Part shown: one piece after another, positions 56,393-64,000 of the stretch
Position numbering within the stretch: the stretch's first letter is position 1
How the letters are laid out: every line of letters starts with the position of its first letter
Assembly (NCBI GenBank): GCA_963836215.1
Contig: CAWIIU010000005.1
Span: 690,334-754,333, forward strand
Reading direction: 5' to 3'
Source of the DNA: an uncultured Actinomycetota bacterium
Lineage (GTDB): Bacteria; Actinomycetota; Actinomycetes; Streptomycetales; Streptomycetaceae
Length of the DNA: 64,000 nucleotides
Notes under the pieces: generated by a model
Told to the model about the DNA's origin: nothing
Database searches by the model: none
Seen by the model: only the letters and a program-made list of their open reading frames with translations
Translations under genes and position numbers: made by a program

Positions 56393-56554
56393 CCCTGCCC
56401 CTTCACGCTCCGGCCGGGTGGGGGGAATTGTCTCGTCCTCAACAAATTCCGCACCGAACGGCTCCTATCCGCTGCCGAGTTGATACGGTGCGCTGGCTCA
56501 GCACTTGACGCGCGTTCAACTGACGCACGTACGTGCAAGCCCCGGGGGATTTCC

Positions 56555-57817
56555 ATGAGCGACGACATCGATGACGACATACATGTGGTCAGAGCGAGTC
56601 TGGAACGTGTCAGGCGGCGTGCCGGACATGTGGTCCGCTACTTCTACGCGCGTCTGTTCCGCCACCATCCGGAGCTGCGCCCGCTGTTCCCCGCGGCGCT
56701 GGACGACCAGTACGAGCGGCTGTTCACCGCCCTCGTCCATGTGGTGGAACACCTCGGACACCCCGGGCTCCCGGGGCACCTGGAGCGACTCGGCCGGGAT
56801 CACCGCAAGTTCGGGATCCTGGAGGAGGACTACACCGCGGTCGGTGAAAGCCTGATCGCCGCGATCCGCCACCACAGCCCGAGTTCGTGGGACGAGACCA
56901 CCGAGCGGGCCTGGCAGCGGGTCTACGACTACGCCGCCGCGACCATGACCGGCGGCGCCCGCCGGTCGTTCGCCGACAACGAGCCCGCCTGGTGGGAGGG
57001 AAAGGTCGTCTCGCACCGGTTGCACGGCGAGCACACGGCCGTGGTCCGGGTCGCCGTCAGCGTCGCGTACCCGTGGGAGCCGGGCCAGTACGCCACGATC
57101 GAGCATCCCGAACTGCCGGGTGTGTGGCGGCCGTACTCGCTCGCCGGACCGCGAGGCGGCGGCGATGTACTGGAATTCCACGTCGGCCGGGTGGCGGGCG
57201 GAGCACTCAGCAACATGCTCTGCGACCGTGTCGAGCCCGGGCAGGTGTTGCGGCTCGGCGCCGCGTCCGGCTCCGCGCTCGCCCCACCGCCGGGCACCCC
57301 GGCCGTCACCCTCGTCGCCGCCGGCACGGGCTGGGCACCGGTCAAGTCGGTCCTCGACGAGTTACTCGCCCGAAGACCCGCTCCCCGCATCCGTATCGAC
57401 GTCGTGGCACGGGGCGAGGCGCACTTCTACGACGGCGCCGCGCTGGACGACATCCTGCGGCGCCACCCCTATCTGAGCGCCTACTGGTGGTATCAGGAGC
57501 GCGGCGAGGGCCAGATGCGCGCCGCGGAGCGGCTGCACACACATCTGCGGGCGCGCCACGACTGGCCCGACGAGAGCGTCTATCTCTGCGGCCCCGTGAT
57601 GTTCGTGCAGGAGACGGCCGAGCTGTTGCACGAGTGCGGACTTCCCGAGCAGTCGCTCATCCGCGACCCGCTGCCCAGCTCCGTCAGACAGCGCGGCCAT
57701 GTCTCCCACGCCGAGGCGTTCCTCGATCCCCCGCCGGTGAACTGGATCGACCCGGACGCCCGCACGCGCCCCCTCGGTCTCACGCTCCCGGCGCCGCAGA
57801 GCGCCATCGGTCACTGA
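56555..57817 (+). CDS. Flavohaemoglobin-like protein (globin + FAD/NAD-binding reductase)
   Basis: FYARLF...RPLFP...Q...GRDHRKFG globin; WRPYSLAG, AAGTGWAP, YLCGP; about 45-aa extra C-terminal tail. Confidence 0.9.
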   Translation: MSDDIDDDIHVVRASLERVRRRAGHVVRYFYARLFRHHPELRPLFPAALDDQYERLFTALVHVVEHLGHPGLPGHLERLGRDHRKFGILEEDYTAVGESLIAAIRHHSPSSWDETTERAWQRVYDYAAATMTGGARRSFADNEPAWWEGKVVSHRLHGEHTAVVRVAVSVAYPWEPGQYATIEHPELPGVWRPYSLAGPRGGGDVLEFHVGRVAGGALSNMLCDRVEPGQVLRLGAASGSALAPPPGTPAVTLVAAGTGWAPVKSVLDELLARRPAPRIRIDVVARGEAHFYDGAALDDILRRHPYLSAYWWYQERGEGQMRAAERLHTHLRARHDWPDESVYLCGPVMFVQETAELLHECGLPEQSLIRDPLPSSVRQRGHVSHAEAFLDPPPVNWIDPDARTRPLGLTLPAPQSAIGH

Positions 57818-59979
57818 CCCGACGCACGCCGCCTCTCGAACTCGTCCGCCCAGTGCTTCGTCCGGTCGAGGTAGGCGGTCTCAGCAGCCGCGCCGGTCTT
57901 TCCGTACGCCCCGGAGTACGTCTGGTAGCCGAACCCGGCGGGCGGGTCGGCGGCCGCGGGTTCGATGGTGCTCCCCTCGTGCCACTCGTTGAACGACGTC
58001 ACGGAGACCCACGTGGGTGAACCCCCGATCGCCGGGTCGAGAGCGTTGTTCCACTCCTTGTCGTAGGTGGCACCGTTCGAACGGCCCAGTGTGGGCGTGG
58101 TGTTGCCCGGTACCGCACGGTCGTCCATGTAACCCGGGGCGACCGAGGGCGCCCAGATGAGGCCGTGCGCCTTCGCGTAGTCGCCGGCCTGCTTCCACCC
58201 GGGAGCGGTGGCGCCGGCGATGCCGTCGTAGGTGTAGAGGCCGGAGAAGTGACCGGTCTTCGTGGTGTCGGTGGTCTGCGCGAGGACGATGCTGTCGCCG
58301 GTGACCTGGTCGAGGGCCGTCCAGTCGGAGATCCGTAGGCTTTCGAAGATGTAGAAGGCCGAGCGGTCGCCGTGCGCGGCGTCCCGGTGGAAGGCGGGAT
58401 GGCTGCCGTACGTCGTGTTCAGGTAGCGGATGTCCTCGACGACGGACTGGGCGGTGCGTCCGCTGTACGGCTCGATGTGCCAGGCCACTTCGACGCCTTG
58501 CCGCGCGGCCGCGTCCAGCACCCGCCGGGCCAGCCCGTCCTCGTATCCGCCGCGCCCCCACCAGCTGTAGACGATGACCCCGGCGCCGGACCGCGCGACC
58601 CACTTCATGTGCTGCTCCACCGCCGCGGCCACGTCTCCGGAGTCGTACGGGCCGAGGGCGGGGTAGAGGTCCGCGCCGATGTCCTGCGGCGGGGTGCGGC
58701 CGCCCTGCTGCCAGTGCCGCCAGCTTCCCTGTCCCGCGGGAGTGCCGTACCAGGGGTAGTAGAAGAGGTGGACGTTCTGCGACAGGGCTTCGGTGGCGGG
58801 TGGTGCCGTGCCGAGTGTGCAGGTGTCGATGTCGAAGAGCGCGCCGGCACCGCCGGTGAAGCGGAGGAACAGTGGCCCGCTCCCGGTGGCGTTGAGGGTG
58901 GTCGACACCGTGGTGAACGTTTCCCAGCCACCGGTCGGCGCCACGTTCACCGTGCCGAGCAGTGGGCCGGTCGCCGAACCGGCGCGGACCTCGACGGTGC
59001 CGCCCGCCCCGTCCGAGGAGACCATTGCAGTGAAGGTCGTGGCGCCTGCCGTGCCGACCGACGCGTAACCGGCCCAGTCACCGTTGTCGATGTAGCCGAG
59101 AGTCCGGCCGCCGCTCGCATTGCCGTGCGCCGCGGGCTGGACGCCCGAACCGGACGTGTACGACTCCCCCTCGACGGTCTTCGGTCCGGTGTCGCCCCTC
59201 GGACTGCAGTCGGCGGGGGCGGTGCCCCCCGCGTAGCGGAGGCCGCCGAGCAGCAGCGAGCGGAACGCGGGATCGCTGTAGGACTCGGCGGTGTGGCCGA
59301 GCCCGGTGTAGAAGGAGCGTCCCGAACCCTGCGGATGGCACCAGGTGATGGGATGGTCCCCGCCCATCTCGCCGCCGCTGTAACTGGATTCGTCCAGAGA
59401 CTGCAGGACGCGCACTCGGGAGCGCGGGTTGGTGCGGTAGTTGTACCACTCGTCCGTCCGGCTCCAGGTGGGCCCGAGGTGAGCGGTCGCCGGATGCGAG
59501 CTGTCCTCGGTGGTGACCCTGGCCTGCTGGATGGCCGGGTGGCTCTGGAAGCGGGCACCGACGAGTTGTTCGTAGTGCGGCCACCCGTACTCCGTGTCGG
59601 CGGCCGCGTGGACTCCGACGAAGCCTCCGCCGGAGTCGACGTACGACTGCAGGGCGCTCTGCTGCGCGTCGTTCAGTACATCGCCGGTGGTGTTGAGGAA
59701 GACGACCGCTTCGTAGCCCGCGAGGCCATCGGGGGTGAAGGCGGCGCTGTCCTCGGTGGCGGTGACGGAGAAGCTGTCGGCGGCGCCGAGGGTGCGCAGG
59801 GCGTCGATGCCCGCCGGGATGGAGTCGTGCCGGAAGCCGGCGGTCCTGGAGAAGACGAGTACGTCGTGGTCGGCGGCGGCAGCGGTGGCGGGTGTCGCCG
59901 GCGTTCCGGCGAAGGCAAGTGCGAGGGTCGCCAGCAGGGCCGCCGAGCGACGGACGAAGGTGCGGTGCGAGTACGTCAC
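57811..59979 (-). CDS. Secreted ThuA-like + CBM6 + GH99 (endo-alpha-mannosidase/mannanase-like) fusion
   Basis: GTG 59979 after GGAAGGGG; VLVFSRTAGFRHDSI (ThuA); CBM6; HLFYYPWY, YPALGPYDS, YSWWG, HIEPY, SFNEWHEGSTIEP (GH99). Confidence 0.88.
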   Translation of the reverse strand: MTYSHRTFVRRSAALLATLALAFAGTPATPATAAAADHDVLVFSRTAGFRHDSIPAGIDALRTLGAADSFSVTATEDSAAFTPDGLAGYEAVVFLNTTGDVLNDAQQSALQSYVDSGGGFVGVHAAADTEYGWPHYEQLVGARFQSHPAIQQARVTTEDSSHPATAHLGPTWSRTDEWYNYRTNPRSRVRVLQSLDESSYSGGEMGGDHPITWCHPQGSGRSFYTGLGHTAESYSDPAFRSLLLGGLRYAGGTAPADCSPRGDTGPKTVEGESYTSGSGVQPAAHGNASGGRTLGYIDNGDWAGYASVGTAGATTFTAMVSSDGAGGTVEVRAGSATGPLLGTVNVAPTGGWETFTTVSTTLNATGSGPLFLRFTGGAGALFDIDTCTLGTAPPATEALSQNVHLFYYPWYGTPAGQGSWRHWQQGGRTPPQDIGADLYPALGPYDSGDVAAAVEQHMKWVARSGAGVIVYSWWGRGGYEDGLARRVLDAAARQGVEVAWHIEPYSGRTAQSVVEDIRYLNTTYGSHPAFHRDAAHGDRSAFYIFESLRISDWTALDQVTGDSIVLAQTTDTTKTGHFSGLYTYDGIAGATAPGWKQAGDYAKAHGLIWAPSVAPGYMDDRAVPGNTTPTLGRSNGATYDKEWNNALDPAIGGSPTWVSVTSFNEWHEGSTIEPAAADPPAGFGYQTYSGAYGKTGAAAETAYLDRTKHWADEFERRRASGQ
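58810..59187 (-). repeat. CBM6 copy B, paralogous to 60001-60378
   Basis: 126-aa module with 108/126 identical residues to copy A by manual alignment. Confidence 0.9.
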
Positions 59980-59997
59980 GATGTCCCCTTCCACCCG

Positions 59998-62817
59998 TCA
60001 GCCGAGGGTGAAGGTGTCGATGTCGAGGAGGGCTCCGGAGCCGCCCGTGAAGCGGAGGAACAGCGGTCCGTCACCGGTGCCGTTGAGCGCGGCCGAGACG
60101 GTGGTGAAGGTCTCCCAGCCGCCGGTGGGCGCGACGGCGACCGCCCCGAGCAGGGGGCCGGTCGCCGACCCCGAACGGATCTCGACGGTGCCGCCCGCGC
60201 CGCCCGATGACACGGTGGCGGCGAAGGTCCGCGCACCGGCCGTGGACACGGACGCGTAGCCGGCCCAGTCGCCGTTGTCGATGTAGCCGAGGGTCCGGCC
60301 GCCGCTCGCGTTGTCGTGCGCCGCGGGCTGGACGCCGGAACCGGAGGTGTACGACTCCCCCTCGACGGTCGTCGGTCCGGTGACGCCCCCGGTGGTGAGC
60401 GTGAAGGCGTCGATGTCGAAGAGGTTGCCCTGGCCCGTGACGCCCTTGAAGACGAGAGACAGCGTCGTCGTGCCGGAGGGGACGTTCGTCAGGCCGGTCG
60501 TCACCTCGGTGAAGTTGTCCCAGCCGCCGGTCGGCGCCACGGTCATGGTGCCCAGCAGTGTGCCGGTCGCCGAACCGGCCCTGACCTCGAGGGTTCCGCC
60601 GGCTCCGCCGGACGAGACGCGTGCCGTGGCGCTCCTGGCACCGGCGAGTGCATAGGGCTGGAAGGAGATCCAGTCGCCGTTGTCGGTGAAGCCGACCGTC
60701 TTCCCGCCCTCGGCGCCGCCGTGCTCCGCGGTCTGGATGCCCGACTGTGCGGTGAAGTGCTCGGCCTGCCGGTGTCTCGGTTGCAGCAGGCGCACGCTGT
60801 GCGAGGTCAGTCCGCCGTTGTCGGTGTACTCGGCGTCGAAGACCCCGTAGAGGTTGGCGGCGCTGTCGTGTTCACCATCGGCGGGGACGGCGATGGAGCC
60901 GGAGCAGCCGTTCTTCGAGGTGATCTGATGGCGGTGGCTGTCGTGTCCCAGGAGGTAGGTGACCTTCACCCTGGCGCAGTCGACCGTCCCGTCGTCGGGG
61001 TCGGTGACCTGCACCTGGAACGGCACGGTGTCGCCGAAGGAGAACAGCGCACCGTCGGCGGGGGTCGTCAGACCCACCGTCGGTGCGGTGTTGCCTGCCG
61101 TGACGACCAGGCTCGCGGTGCCGGTGAGCCCTTCGGGGTCGCGCACGGTCAGCGTCGGCCGGTAGGAGCCCGCGCTCGTATACGTGTGGCTGGGGTTCGC
61201 GGCCGTGGAACCGGTCCCGTCGCCGAAGTCCCAGGAGTAGGTCAGGGGTCTGCCCTCGGGGTCCACGCTGCCCTGCGACGAGAAGGCCACGGTCAGCGGG
61301 GTGGGCCCGGAGGTCTTGTCGGCCGCGGCCTTGGCGACCGGGTTGCGGTTGCTGCCGGCGAGATACTCGACGCGGTACAGCGCCTGGTCACCCGCGCCCG
61401 ATCCGTAGTCGAGGACGTACAGCGCCCCGTCGGGGCCGAAGTCGGTGTCGATGATCTGCGTGCCGGTCCACGGGAAGTCCTCGATCACGCCGCGCGAACC
61501 GTCGCTCCTGACCTCGATGGCCTTGATCCACCGGCGGCCGAGCTCAGCCGCGAAGTAGCGTCCGTCGAGCGACTGGGGGAACTTCACCGGAGAGTCGAGA
61601 TTCGGGTCGTAGCGATAGACCTCGCCGCCCATGGGTGATTCCGAGCCGCCGCCGAACTCGGGCGGGGAACCCGCGTCGCCGTACTTGATCCAGCTCTGCT
61701 GCACGGCGGGGAGCGTGGCGAGACCGGTGTTGCGGAACGAGTTGTTCGCGGGGCCGCCGGTGCAGTTGTACTTGGCTCCGGACGGGCCGCCGGGGAACGT
61801 GTACTCGTTGTACGTCTCCGAAGCGGTGTTGGTGCCGGTGCAGTAGGGCCAGCCGTGGTTGCCCGGAGCGGTGATGCGGTCGAACTCCACCTGGCCGCCG
61901 GGACCCCGGTTCGGGTCGGTCGTGCCCGCGTCGGGGCCGTAGTCGCCCAGGTAGACGGTGCCGGTGGTGCGGTCGACGGACATCCGGAAGGGGTTGCGGA
62001 AGCCCATCGCGTAGATCTCCGGACGGGTCCTGGCGGTGCCGGGGGCGAAGAGGTTGCCGGCGGGGACGGTGTAACTGCCGTCCGCCTGTGGCTTGATGCG
62101 CAGCACCTTGCCGCGCAGGTCGTTGGTGTTGGCGGAGGACCGCTGGGCATCGAACTGCGGGTTGCGGTCGGCGCGTTCGTCGATGGGGCTGTAGCCGACG
62201 GACTCGAACGGGTTGGTGTCGTCGCCGGTGGTCAGATAGAGATTTCCGGCTGCGTCGAAGTCGATGTCTCCGCCGACGTGGCAGCACTGGCCGCGGTCGT
62301 TGGGGACTTCCAGGACGACCTTCTCGGAGGCGGGGTCGAGGGTGCCGTCGGGCTTGAGCGTGAACCGCGAGAGGTTCAGATGGCCTTTCCAGCGCTCGAA
62401 GTCGGCGGCGCCGCCGGTGACAGGGGCGTCTCCGGCCGGCGTGTCCAGCTTCGGGGAGTAGTAGAGGTAGACATGACGGTTGACGGTGAAGGCCGGGTCG
62501 GCCGCCACTCCCTGGAGTCCTTCCTCGTCATGGGTGTAGACATCGAGCCTGCCGGCGACTTTGGTGTTCCCCGCGGGGTCGGTGTAGCGGACCGTCCCGT
62601 CGCGCGCGGTGTGCAGTACGGCCCGGTCGGGCAGCACCGCGAGCGACATGGCCTCACCCATCTCAGCGGGCCCGTAGGCGAGTTGGACCTGCTGGTAGTC
62701 GGCGGGCGGGATGGCACCCGGCGCCCCGGCCGCGGTGCCGGTCACCGCCCCGCCGGACAGCAGCAGCGTGAAGGCGGCGAACGGTGCCGCCCACGCCGGA
62801 AAACGGCGTAAGGGCAT
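59998..62817 (-). CDS. Secreted PQQ-dependent sugar dehydrogenase-like (GSDH beta-propeller) + PKD + two CBM6 domains
   Basis: Signal peptide; EEGLQG, HVGGDIDFD, DLRGKVLRI, YAMGFRNPFR, DFGPDGALY; PKD TYSWDFGDG; two IDNGDW-type CBM6 modules. Confidence 0.88.
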   Translation of the reverse strand: MPLRRFPAWAAPFAAFTLLLSGGAVTGTAAGAPGAIPPADYQQVQLAYGPAEMGEAMSLAVLPDRAVLHTARDGTVRYTDPAGNTKVAGRLDVYTHDEEGLQGVAADPAFTVNRHVYLYYSPKLDTPAGDAPVTGGAADFERWKGHLNLSRFTLKPDGTLDPASEKVVLEVPNDRGQCCHVGGDIDFDAAGNLYLTTGDDTNPFESVGYSPIDERADRNPQFDAQRSSANTNDLRGKVLRIKPQADGSYTVPAGNLFAPGTARTRPEIYAMGFRNPFRMSVDRTTGTVYLGDYGPDAGTTDPNRGPGGQVEFDRITAPGNHGWPYCTGTNTASETYNEYTFPGGPSGAKYNCTGGPANNSFRNTGLATLPAVQQSWIKYGDAGSPPEFGGGSESPMGGEVYRYDPNLDSPVKFPQSLDGRYFAAELGRRWIKAIEVRSDGSRGVIEDFPWTGTQIIDTDFGPDGALYVLDYGSGAGDQALYRVEYLAGSNRNPVAKAAADKTSGPTPLTVAFSSQGSVDPEGRPLTYSWDFGDGTGSTAANPSHTYTSAGSYRPTLTVRDPEGLTGTASLVVTAGNTAPTVGLTTPADGALFSFGDTVPFQVQVTDPDDGTVDCARVKVTYLLGHDSHRHQITSKNGCSGSIAVPADGEHDSAANLYGVFDAEYTDNGGLTSHSVRLLQPRHRQAEHFTAQSGIQTAEHGGAEGGKTVGFTDNGDWISFQPYALAGARSATARVSSGGAGGTLEVRAGSATGTLLGTMTVAPTGGWDNFTEVTTGLTNVPSGTTTLSLVFKGVTGQGNLFDIDAFTLTTGGVTGPTTVEGESYTSGSGVQPAAHDNASGGRTLGYIDNGDWAGYASVSTAGARTFAATVSSGGAGGTVEIRSGSATGPLLGAVAVAPTGGWETFTTVSAALNGTGDGPLFLRFTGGSGALLDIDTFTLG
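60001..60378 (-). repeat. CBM6 copy A
   Basis: See copy B; identical runs such as VEGESYTSGSGVQPAAH and NASGGRTLGYIDNGDWAGYASV. Confidence 0.9.
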
Positions 62818-62911
62818 GGAGAGGTTCCTTCCTGACTCAATGGGGGTGCGTCAGGCAAGGCGCGCGACGGCATGCGTCCACCGTCAAGGGGCATACGGCC
62901 CTGCGGAGTTC

Positions 62912-62998
62912 TTGCATGAATTGCGAAGATACTTGTCCACGTCGTGCGAGTGTTTTGCATGTTCGCAACGCAAGGTCAATTTGTCAAGGCTATGTCAA
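62912..62998. promoter_or_regulatory. AT-rich promoter/operator region of the GSDH-GH99 operon
   Basis: TTGCATG twice (62912, 62955), the second inside TTGC-N6-GCAA; three GTCAA (minus-strand TTGAC) at 62975, 62983, 62994. Confidence 0.5.
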
Positions 62999-63058
62999 AA
63001 TCCCGGGCAACCGCTCTCCCCGCTGCCCGCGATGCCGAGTTGACCGATGACACACGGA

Positions 63059-63088
63059 AGCGGCACCACCGGGGAGGGTGGTGCCGCT
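63059..63088 (-). terminator. Intrinsic terminator downstream of the xdhC-like gene
   Basis: AGCGGCACCACC-N6-GGTGGTGCCGCT perfect 12-bp stem. Confidence 0.7.
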
Positions 63089-63197
63089 GCCGCCCCGATT
63101 CTGCGTGGACGTGTCAACGTCTGCGGTCGCTCCGGGCTCTGCTGCGGCATGGTGCGGCGCCTCACCGAACCGGCCCCGCAGCGCTGCCCGCTCTCTC

Positions 63198-64000
63198 TCA
63201 GACGGACTTGAGGCGCGCGGGATGAATCGCTCCGGCCGTACGGGCCAGTGGCGCACCGCTGCCGCCCCAGCGCAGGGCGACGATCTCCGCCGCGACCGAG
63301 ACGGCCACCTCCTCCGGTGTCCGGGCGCCGAGGTCGAGGCCGATCGGCGAATGCAGCCGCCGCAGAGCCTCCTCGTCGAGCCCCTTCTCCCGAAGCCGCG
63401 CCATGCGGTCCTCGTGCGTACGGCGGCTTCCCATCGCACCGATGTACGCCGCCGGTGTGCGCAGGGCGACTTCCAGCAGCGGGACGTCGAACTTCGGGTC
63501 ATGGGTGAGCACGCACAGCACGGTCCTCCCGTCGACCTCCGTCTCCCGCAGGTACCGGTGCGGCCAGTCGACGACCACCTCGACCCCGCTGGGGAAGCGG
63601 CGCGGATCGGCGAAGACGGGGCGCGCGTCGCACACGGTCACCCGGTAGCCGAGGAACGCACCGATCCCGGCGACCGCGGCCGCGAAGTCGATCGCACCGA
63701 AGACCAGCATCCGCGGCGGCGGGGCGAAGGAGTGCAGGAACACGGTGACGTCGTCCTCCCTCCGCTCGCCCCGCGGGCCGTAGTGGCGCCGGCCCGTCGC
63801 GCCCTGGGCCAGCTCCCCGCGCGCGTCGTCGGTGACCGCTGCGTCCAGTCCCGACGTCCCCAAGGAGCCCGCCACCCGGTCGGGCCAGACGGCGAGGGTG
63901 GCACCGCGCGGGGCGGGGCCGTCCACGACCGTGGCCGCCACGACCGGTTGATGCCCGGCGACCGATGCGGCCACCTCGCCGAAGGACGGGTCGGCCTCGG
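63198..64000 (-). CDS. XdhC/CoxI family molybdoenzyme accessory protein, 5' end outside the window
   Basis: RMLVFGAIDFA, VTVCDAR, LTHDPKFD, YIGAMGSRR, PIGLDLGARTPEE. Confidence 0.92.
   Translation of the reverse strand, partial: EADPSFGEVAASVAGHQPVVAATVVDGPAPRGATLAVWPDRVAGSLGTSGLDAAVTDDARGELAQGATGRRHYGPRGERREDDVTVFLHSFAPPPRMLVFGAIDFAAAVAGIGAFLGYRVTVCDARPVFADPRRFPSGVEVVVDWPHRYLRETEVDGRTVLCVLTHDPKFDVPLLEVALRTPAAYIGAMGSRRTHEDRMARLREKGLDEEALRRLHSPIGLDLGARTPEEVAVSVAAEIVALRWGGSGAPLARTAGAIHPARLKSV

Follow-up and report, generated by a model that had tools for sequence, protein, structure and literature searches.

Introduction

The GH99 enzymes characterised so far are, to our knowledge, all stand-alone proteins; they come from Bacteroides, Shewanella and the Golgi. 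The present study concerns a stretch of 64,000 nucleotides (nt) of high-GC actinobacterial DNA (about 70% GC; C5:690334-754333 in a 7.75-Mb assembly), assigned to Streptomyces by its database homologs and hereafter the window, in which a GH99 domain constitutes the C-terminal part of a signal-peptide-bearing ThuA protein whose gene directly follows that of a signal-peptide-bearing GSDH propeller protein. In many species of Streptomyces, GH99 is in this manner stably linked to a secreted redox-type pair, so far uncharacterised, that nearly every Streptomyces carries. The arrangement offers a handle on two questions, the role of the secreted ThuA/GSDH proteins and the actinobacterial attack on the fungal mannan coat, since a ThuA/GSDH system that is otherwise without a substrate gains a probable one through its GH99 tail.

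Parts of this locus recur in several described systems. Within GH99, a tryptophan at the -2 subsite goes with mannose in the mannanases and a tyrosine with glucose in the Golgi endomannosidases (PMC11025385), and GH71 enzymes have DYGE in place of the EWHE motif of GH99 (PMC13421300). ThuAB makes 3-keto-disaccharides, and the DUF1080 protein BT2157 hydrolyses 3-keto-trehalose (PMC8121099). In Cellulosimicrobium, purification traced a beta-xylosidase/beta-glucosidase activity on a bulky glycoside to a ThuA-GSDH-PKD-CBM6-PKD protein as the responsible subunit (PMC4562250), and among the proteins that S. scabiei secretes on cellulose plus suberin, a GSDH protein ranks second in abundance (PMC4567563). 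No paper was found in the literature on bacterial GH99 combined with ThuA. All of the domain families involved have been described before, and databases contain many examples of the architecture; the system as such has been neither described nor characterised.

Domain organisation and the conserved core

Two long co-oriented open reading frames on the minus strand fill positions 57811-62817 exactly. Reading of their junction (TGA-cgggtGGAAGGGGacatc-GTG) places the true start of gene 2 at the GTG at 59979 and confirms the 18-nt gap between co-oriented genes that the first-pass annotation of this DNA had proposed; the gap contains a good Shine-Dalgarno sequence, and that of gene 1 (AGGAAGGA) lies 8 nt ahead of its ATG. 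The genes and the domains that are not treated separately below are as follows (aa, amino acids).

62817..59998, minus strand: gene 1, 939 aa; signal peptide, GSDH six-bladed propeller, PKD, Ig-like, CBM6 (subtype 1) and CBM6 (subtype 2) domains; from open reading frame and Pfam
61099..61350, minus strand: PKD domain of gene 1, aa 490-573; Pfam PKD_4, E 1e-21
60769..61092, minus strand: Ig-like linker domain of gene 1, aa 576-683, from PKD to the first CBM6; weak Big_7 match and match to the Ig domain of 9kvu
59980..59997, minus strand: intergenic spacer of 18 nt, holding the Shine-Dalgarno sequence GGAAGGGG of gene 2; sequence read
59979..57811, minus strand: gene 2, 722 aa; signal peptide with RR motif, ThuA, CBM6 (subtype 2) and GH99 domains; from open reading frame and Pfam
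59230..59862, minus strand: ThuA domain of gene 2; Pfam PF06283, 269.6 bits against a cut-off of 33.4; PDB 4jqs at E 2e-18

For gene 2, the order signal-ThuA-CBM6-GH99 given earlier holds throughout, with ThuA (aa 45-255, E 4e-80), CBM6 (275-393, E 4e-30) and GH99 (404-720, E 3e-60) all above their Pfam thresholds. Gene 1 had been read as signal-GSDH-PKD-CBM6-CBM6, which agrees with its Pfam domains (GSDH 56-335, E 1e-32; PKD 490-573; CBM6 684-808 and about 813-939, both together E 2e-61) and misses the additional Ig-like domain, a part that is kept as a block in all homologous loci. An RR pair occurs in the n-region of the signal peptide of gene 2 (59979-59872) and of most ThuA-GH99 orthologs with inspected N-termini, the strict twin-arginine pattern being present in 43 of 93 orthologs, and suggests export of the folded ThuA-GH99 protein by the twin-arginine (Tat) route; the GSDH proteins mostly carry plain Sec-type signals.

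The association that persists outside this locus is the one between GSDH and ThuA. A tblastn search of each domain against the own genome revealed three other loci with ThuA and GSDH in one reading frame, one of which is a single frame of 1264 aa with the order GSDH-PKD-Ig-CBM6-ThuA-DUF1080 (G000 C6:663473-667267; L064:974-4768). In the window, the chain is instead divided into two proteins behind a CBM6. ThuA homologs occur in 37 of 40 relatives, and in all 18 relative loci that were fetched, a GSDH-PKD-Ig-CBM6 gene is located directly upstream of ThuA or is fused to it. What follows ThuA in these 18 loci varies: DUF1080, DUF1080-CBM6, DUF1080-ricin, ricin, CBM6, nothing or CBM6-GH99. Judged by domain order, the conserved pair is thus GSDH with ThuA, fused or adjacent genus-wide, and GH99 is one of several interchangeable tails, which here occupies the place of DUF1080 in the same-genome paralog and in sister loci. 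Accordingly, the pairing of GH99 with GSDH through CBM6, as first described, stands insofar as the GSDH gene accompanies every carrier of the module (see below), and has to be shifted in emphasis from the GH99 tail to the GSDH-ThuA core.

DUF1080, the family of 3-keto-disaccharide hydrolases, is found only in the paralogs and sister modules. Among the neighbours of the window pair, there is neither a ThuB dehydrogenase of the Gfo/Idh/MocA type nor a disaccharide ABC transporter, which are the partners of ThuA in ThuAB systems, and a set of the BT2156-BT2160 type (DUF1080, Gfo/Idh/MocA dehydrogenase and sugar-isomerase-like lyase) is present in neither the module nor its neighbours. The three own-genome paralogs, as well as the Cellulosimicrobium protein with the same domain set (PMC4562250), bear out the first-pass statement that ThuA domains of actinobacteria are more often found fused to GSDH-PKD-CBM6.

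The catalytic tail

57835..58785, minus strand: GH99 catalytic domain of gene 2; Pfam PF16317, 204.7 bits; NEWHE motif at 57976-57990; SWWG, with the -2 subsite Trp, at 58555-58566

The PF16317 score compares with a cut-off of 33, and no Pfam GH71 match to gene 2 was obtained at E<=0.01. An assignment of the C-terminus to GH71, which had been named as the outcome that would overturn the earlier reading, was rejected on this ground and because the motif reads EWHE rather than DYGE. In whole-domain alignment, the solved structures nearest to it are those of BtGH99 (4ACY, E 6e-54), human MANEA and BxGH99. The segment SFNEWHEG is aligned to the catalytic residues E329/E332 of BtGH99, and both glutamates are intact, as had been read from the letters alone. 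Moreover, YSWWG of the window aligns with LSWYP of the human enzyme and VTWWG of BtGH99, so that Trp stands where the human protein has Tyr189, and the -2 loop of the human enzyme is absent, corresponding to a gap in the alignment. FNEWHE and SWWG are retained in 93 of 93 fused homologs. The domain is hence a genuine GH99, and by its predicted -2 subsite Trp it belongs to the subtype of endo-alpha-1,2-mannanases.

Occurrence and origin of the fusion

GH99 was detected in 33 of 301 species representatives of the genus, and the loci of 26 of these 33 species were fetched for determination of their architecture. The full cassette, a GSDH gene followed by ThuA-[DUF1080]-[CBM6]-GH99 with the bracketed domains variable, was found in 17 fetched loci, which together with the window and two relatives amounts to 20 of 301 species (about 7%); 10 fetched loci contain a different, stand-alone GH99 that is 59-68% identical. 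In all 20 module-bearing species, the GSDH gene is located directly upstream. All 24 module-type GH99 loci that were inspected in other genomes show the same order of the two genes, a recurrence that puts the arrangement far beyond chance. The linkage is kept across species-level divergence (74-89% identity), and neighbourhood look-ups placed the GSDH gene 2-18 nt upstream in each variant checked, one GSDH gene being frameshifted. More than 90 such proteins are contained in databases, almost all of them named only 'ThuA domain-containing protein', and carriers among the database clusters include S. microflavus, S. anulatus, S. chartreusis, S. tendae, S. davaonensis and S. niveus. The statement that this is not a recognised system remains valid with regard to the literature, although the architecture, given its share of the genus and its more than 90 database protein clusters, is not rare. 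Among the best 120 database hits, the architectures were distributed as follows.

ThuA-CBM6-GH99: 61
ThuA-GH99: 22
ThuA-DUF1080-CBM6-GH99: 10
GSDH-PKD-Ig-CBM6-GH99: 1
Other N-terminal domain, mostly discoidin according to Pfam, in Streptosporangiales: 26

This census and the constant presence of GSDH upstream answer the question of co-occurrence raised with the first-pass annotation in the affirmative. In a tree of GH99 domains, the fused forms of Streptomyces constitute a single clade, those with DUF1080 branching close to its base, and the discoidin forms, together with a few fused forms of Actinomadura and Microtetraspora, are sister to it; gene 2 has lost its CBM6 on at least four occasions. 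This topology fits a history in which GH99 was likely grafted once behind ThuA-DUF1080-CBM6, followed by loss of DUF1080, yielding the form of the window, and by loss of CBM6 in some lineages.

The CBM6 repeats

60394..60768, minus strand: CBM6 copy 1 (subtype 1), gene 1, after the Ig-like domain; Pfam CBM_6; separate clade, support 100/100
60001..60381, minus strand: CBM6 copy 2 (subtype 2), at the C-terminal end of gene 1; its nearest neighbour in the tree (97/88) is the CBM6 of gene 2, with 86% aa identity
58816..59172, minus strand: CBM6 copy 3 (subtype 2), gene 2; from Pfam and tree

All three copies score above the threshold of the Pfam model. The CBM6 tree resolves two subtypes with 100/100 support, one represented by the copy behind the Ig-like domain and the other by the C-terminal copy of gene 1 and that of gene 2, which are each about 55-59% identical to copy 1. 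Positional orthologs of the subtype 2 copies in other genomes are 69-77% identical, versus 86% within the window, and at the DNA level copies 2 and 3 share 81% identity over 300 nt with a tract of 94% over 98 nt; the close in-window pair and this tract point to gene conversion that homogenised the two copies. A ligand prediction from the PDB relatives 2v4v, 1w9s and 5m77 was judged unreliable because the CBM6 family binds many different ligands.

The GSDH propeller

61348..62712, minus strand: GSDH propeller domain of gene 1, aa 36-490; Pfam PF07995, 114 bits; putative catalytic His180 (CCHVGG) at 62278-62280

The identity of the domain to solved enzymes is only about 20%. An AlphaFold (AF2) model from 31 homologs reaches good confidence (pLDDT 83.7, pTM 0.90). 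The best Foldseek matches of this model are PQQ (pyrroloquinoline quinone)-dependent soluble sugar dehydrogenases, including sGDH, E. coli Asd and S. coelicolor Adh (3A9G, 2ISM, 5MIN, 2G8S and 3DAS; E 1e-15 to 1e-19, TM 0.72-0.82 on the target), and as modelled the domain is a six-bladed propeller of the sGDH/Asd type. CCH180VGG aligns with LHSGG of 2ISM and IHNGG of 3A9G, the His of the HxGG motif being invariant in 31 homologs; in the PQQ/Ca2+ ligand region, R-N-P and GWP are kept, with FRNP in place of HRNP. Membership in AA12 was rejected, as AA12 structures match at E 5e-10 to 4e-7 with a TM of about 0.5, far behind bacterial sGDH and Asd.

The genes pqqB, C, D and E are present in the window strain. 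Their cluster (L067:5704-8670) lies about 50 kb from the gene of the 1264-aa paralog, and a GH28-CBM35 gene (L067:11016-12953) is found about 2.3 kb downstream of pqqE. Within the genus, pqqC occurs in just 22% of the species, whereas secreted GSDH/ThuA pairs are nearly universal, and therefore most carriers of such pairs cannot make PQQ. If the propeller uses PQQ, most carriers would have to scavenge the cofactor, which is known for E. coli Asd and plausible for a soil enzyme that is secreted.

Control region of the cassette

62959..63000, minus strand: promoter-like block; TTGACA (62987-62982), 17 nt, GAACAT (62964-62959), with a second TTGACA ahead; conserved in 28 loci
62827..62860, minus strand: leader hairpin, in which the anti-Shine-Dalgarno arm CCTTGCCTGAC (62860-62850) pairs with GTCAGGAAGG (62836-62827), which holds the Shine-Dalgarno sequence of gene 1

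The conserved promoter was detected by comparing loci, its form in the orthogroup being TTGACA, 17 nt, CAGCAT; a scan of 57400-63400 for consensus promoters and terminators gave no site, including at the junction, and is uninformative for high-GC DNA. Promoter block and leader occur in all 28 orthogroup loci irrespective of tail or genomic context, while a more distant paralog group is devoid of both, and a search of the own genome, made to define the regulon, found the motif only at the cassette. In the leader, the hairpin arms are conserved and the intervening C-rich loop varies in length and sequence. Thermodynamic folding predicts an unpaired probability of the gene 1 Shine-Dalgarno sequence of 0.02 in the window versus 0.32 in shuffles (mean over the loci 0.16 versus 0.35 for shuffled upstream sequence). 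RNAalifold on 24 leaders recovered the hairpin and found no covariation, hence no statistical proof of an RNA structure, and an Rfam scan of the leader returned no relevant family. The leader could be a translational control element or could resemble a riboswitch. One conserved control region ahead of gene 1 and none between the genes supports an operon, from which we infer co-transcription of genes 1 and 2; by these features, the two-gene unit is a self-contained cassette with its own conserved promoter and leader.

Proposed function and alternative explanations

The explanation of the whole that we favour, with a probability of about 0.55, is a cassette in which a secreted GSDH/ThuA core and GH99 cooperate on one glycan surface. 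Both proteins would be exported, and their common CBM6 subtype would keep them on the same glycan surface, where GH99 would make endo-cuts in alpha-mannan of the yeast or fungal type or in high-mannose glycans, next to alpha-1,3-mannose caps. The GSDH/ThuA pair would oxidise sugars, either those of the polymer itself or those of oligosaccharides that GH99 sets free, with PQQ made by the window strain itself and scavenged by most other carriers. Catalytic coupling of this oxidation with mannan hydrolysis is plausible as a hypothesis, and the substrate and the use of PQQ are our inference as well. The domain assignments with their intact catalytic motifs, the linkage of GSDH and ThuA throughout the genus, the single origin and broad distribution of the GH99 graft, the kinship of the CBM6 copies and a leader specific to the cassette are, by contrast, secure. 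Elsewhere in the genome, the alpha-mannan enzymes GH92 (two copies) and GH76 (one copy) are encoded, and Streptomyces is reported to lyse yeast, to attack yeast walls and to induce mannosidases (PMC13170338).

Several observations weigh against this interpretation. No transporters or other mannan enzymes are clustered with the cassette among its neighbours. A Logan contig (L037:3095-6514) encodes a direct GSDH-PKD-Ig-CBM6-GH99 fusion without ThuA, apparently the outcome of a deletion from one CBM6 repeat to another; at L033:4654-6020 a frameshifted GSDH gene lies beside an intact ThuA-CBM6-GH99, and at L013:9288-10234 GH99 is split over two frames, so that no single part is indispensable everywhere. 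These variants may represent either real decay or sequencing errors. In addition, subtype 2 CBM6 is also present in the DUF1080-tailed sister modules L017 and L018, which have no GH99; this subtype is accordingly older than the graft of GH99, forms part of the GSDH/ThuA system and is not by itself a pointer to mannan. Of the CBM6 domains first described as shared by both proteins, two are indeed of one subtype, but the three copies are not equivalent. In Agd3, the role of a carbohydrate-binding module is taken by a ThuA-like fold (PMC7229062). As to the cofactor, the NCBIfam PQQ dehydrogenase model TIGR03606 yields 36.6 bits versus a cut-off of 434, and pqqC is found in 4 of 20 module-bearing species versus 65 of 301 in the genus, i.e. 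there is no correlation of the module with PQQ biosynthesis as judged by pqqC. Because pqqC in the carriers equals the genus background, use of PQQ by the propeller is unproven: the fold and the HxGG His fit the designation as a PQQ-type dehydrogenase, but PQQ dependence is not secured, with about 80% of the module-bearing species lacking pqqC.

The main competitor, which we consider possible at clearly lower odds, regards GH99 as an independent secreted mannanase that was joined to ThuA through recombination of CBM6 repeats and shares export, regulation and anchoring with its partners, with no catalytic cooperation. The high plasticity of the ThuA tail (DUF1080, ricin, CBM6 or nothing) speaks for it, as do the repeated loss of CBM6 from gene 2, the recombination of CBM6 repeats, visible in the conversion tract and in the GSDH-CBM6-GH99 deletion form, and the use of another binding domain, discoidin, by the nearest non-fused GH99 relatives in Streptosporangiales. 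It accounts less readily for a linkage that persists through the divergence of the 20 carrier species with catalytic motifs intact in all 93 homologs, and for the fact that GH99 remains linked to GSDH in every variant, even in the one without ThuA.

Two further explanations are less likely than this one. In the first, an unlikely one, GSDH and ThuA would themselves make up an enzyme that cleaves glycosides in a non-hydrolytic manner, by oxidation followed by elimination or hydrolysis as in the 3-keto-glycoside route, with DUF1080 or GH99 as a second cleavage activity and the endo-mannanase feeding an oxidative exo-acting machine. This would agree with the glycosidase activities reported for the Cellulosimicrobium protein (PMC4562250), with the 3-keto-sugar chemistry of ThuAB and BT2157 (PMC8121099) and with DUF1080 as the usual tail, located in the same chain in the own-genome paralog. 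However, the Cellulosimicrobium assignment derives from purification out of a complex and not from a recombinant protein, neither a Gfo/Idh/MocA dehydrogenase nor a lyase of the sugar-phosphate-isomerase type is encoded nearby, the cassette encodes no electron acceptor, and GH99 chemistry requires an intact 2-OH and is unrelated to that of keto-sugars. Even smaller is the chance that GSDH/ThuA is an extracellular redox helper, either an electron donor of lytic polysaccharide monooxygenases (LPMOs) or a source of reduced quinone or peroxide like fungal AA12, for which GH99 merely supplies soluble sugar as fuel. The relation of the fold to AA12 and sGDH, the CBM-tethered extracellular location and the abundance of a GSDH protein in a lignocellulose-induced secretome (PMC4567563) would suit such a role; the match to AA12 is much weaker than that to bacterial sGDH/Asd (E 5e-10 versus 1e-18), no cytochrome or LPMO gene occurs in the cassette or among its neighbours, and the DUF1080 and GH99 tails are left unexplained.

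Returning to the cooperating cassette, its most far-reaching form can be proposed only tentatively, as we consider it improbable as a whole. GSDH/ThuA would then constitute a CBM-anchored extracellular oxidative machine for glycans, the target of which is set by an exchangeable tail (DUF1080, lectins or GH99), and in the GH99 version a classical endo-mannanase and a cofactor-scavenging sugar oxidoreductase would jointly strip the mannoprotein coat of fungi on one surface, with the cassette under the control of its own leader RNA that masks the ribosome-binding site. If true, this would mean that Gram-positive soil bacteria break down alpha-mannan by a route not recognised before, one that combines oxidation with hydrolysis. 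If oxidation and hydrolysis do cooperate, an auxiliary activity for alpha-mannan would be added; if they do not, the locus still illustrates cleanly how CBM6 repeats can mediate the grafting of a domain.

Genomic surroundings

Neighbours of the ThuA+GSDH pair in the window comprise an XdhC-family gene, a flavohaemoglobin gene and a NagB-like gene. Gene 2 is convergent with the flavohaemoglobin gene (56480-57817, plus strand), their stop codons overlapping by 7 nt at 57811-57817, and no terminator-like hairpin is present between the two stops. On the 5' side of gene 1, an intergenic region of 380 nt is followed by the XdhC-family gene and subsequently by a contractile-injection-system or phage-tail-like cluster (L001:1614-8682, corresponding to window positions of about 65614-72682, past the window end), which starts 1.3 kb beyond the XdhC-family gene and encodes sheath, T4-baseplate-like and Pvc16_N proteins and an AAA ATPase, followed by an open reading frame of 2316 aa. 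A GC-rich hairpin without a T-run, GGCAGCGGCACCACC-ctcccc-GGTGGTGCCGCTTCC (63055-63092, minus strand), lies 3' of the XdhC-family gene and is probably its terminator, separating that gene from the promoter of the module; it also gives a weak, sub-threshold match to CcsR1. Since synteny around the cassette is common only to the closest relative (L054), the genomic context gives no functional hint, and XdhC, flavohaemoglobin and the injection-system cluster look unrelated to the cassette. No true plasmid copy of the module was found, the single full-length match being a chromosome-sized Nonomuraea record.

Comparison with known systems

With the Bacteroides enzymes BtGH99 and BxGH99 (4ACY, 4AD1), which stem from yeast-mannan utilisation loci, the GH99 domain of the window shares the family, the EWHE pair, the -2 Trp and the lack of the eukaryote-type loop, at about 40% identity across the whole domain. 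It differs from them in the absence of a 13-residue insertion of BtGH99 and, above all, in its setting: the Bacteroides GH99 enzymes are single-domain proteins in Sus-type loci, whereas that of the window forms the C-terminal end of a ThuA-CBM6 protein, whose gene shares a two-gene cassette with that of a GSDH propeller in a Gram-positive organism. The nearest non-fused GH99 domains, at 73-76% identity and in the sister group of the tree, are those of secreted discoidin(F5/8C)-GH99 proteins of Streptosporangiales, which feature an N-terminal discoidin domain (and FN3) where the window has ThuA-CBM6.

On the redox side, the GSDH domain resembles the soluble PQQ sugar dehydrogenases (A. calcoaceticus sGDH, E. 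coli Asd/YliI and S. coelicolor Adh, 3DAS) and fungal AA12 in the six-bladed fold, the His of HxGG and the R-N-P motif. Unlike the soluble PQQ dehydrogenases, it contains about 100 extra residues in insertions, stays far below the NCBIfam subfamily cut-off, carries PKD, Ig and CBM6 modules and is always paired with ThuA. The 3-keto-glycoside catabolism of ThuAB and BT2157 (PMC8121099) is similar with respect to the ThuA domain, to DUF1080 in the sister modules and to sugar oxidation before glycoside cleavage; its partner dehydrogenase, however, is ThuB or BT2158, a periplasmic protein of the Gfo/Idh/MocA type, in contrast to the GSDH propeller, the secreted CBM-bearing proteins and the absence of DUF1080 in the window.

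Closest in overall composition are two further members of the ThuA/GSDH kind. M768_06655 of Cellulosimicrobium cellulans F16 (PMC4562250), the sole one with any biochemical data, is likewise a secreted actinobacterial protein with ThuA, GSDH, PKD and CBM6, but consists of one chain with ThuA first and without GH99, and its reported activity is that of a beta-xylosidase/beta-glucosidase. The 1264-aa paralog of the same genome retains the domain order of the two window genes with 63-65% identity from GSDH through ThuA; in contrast to the cassette, it is one polypeptide, lacks, like the distant paralog group, the conserved leader of the window orthogroup, and ends in a DUF1080 tail where the window has CBM6-GH99.

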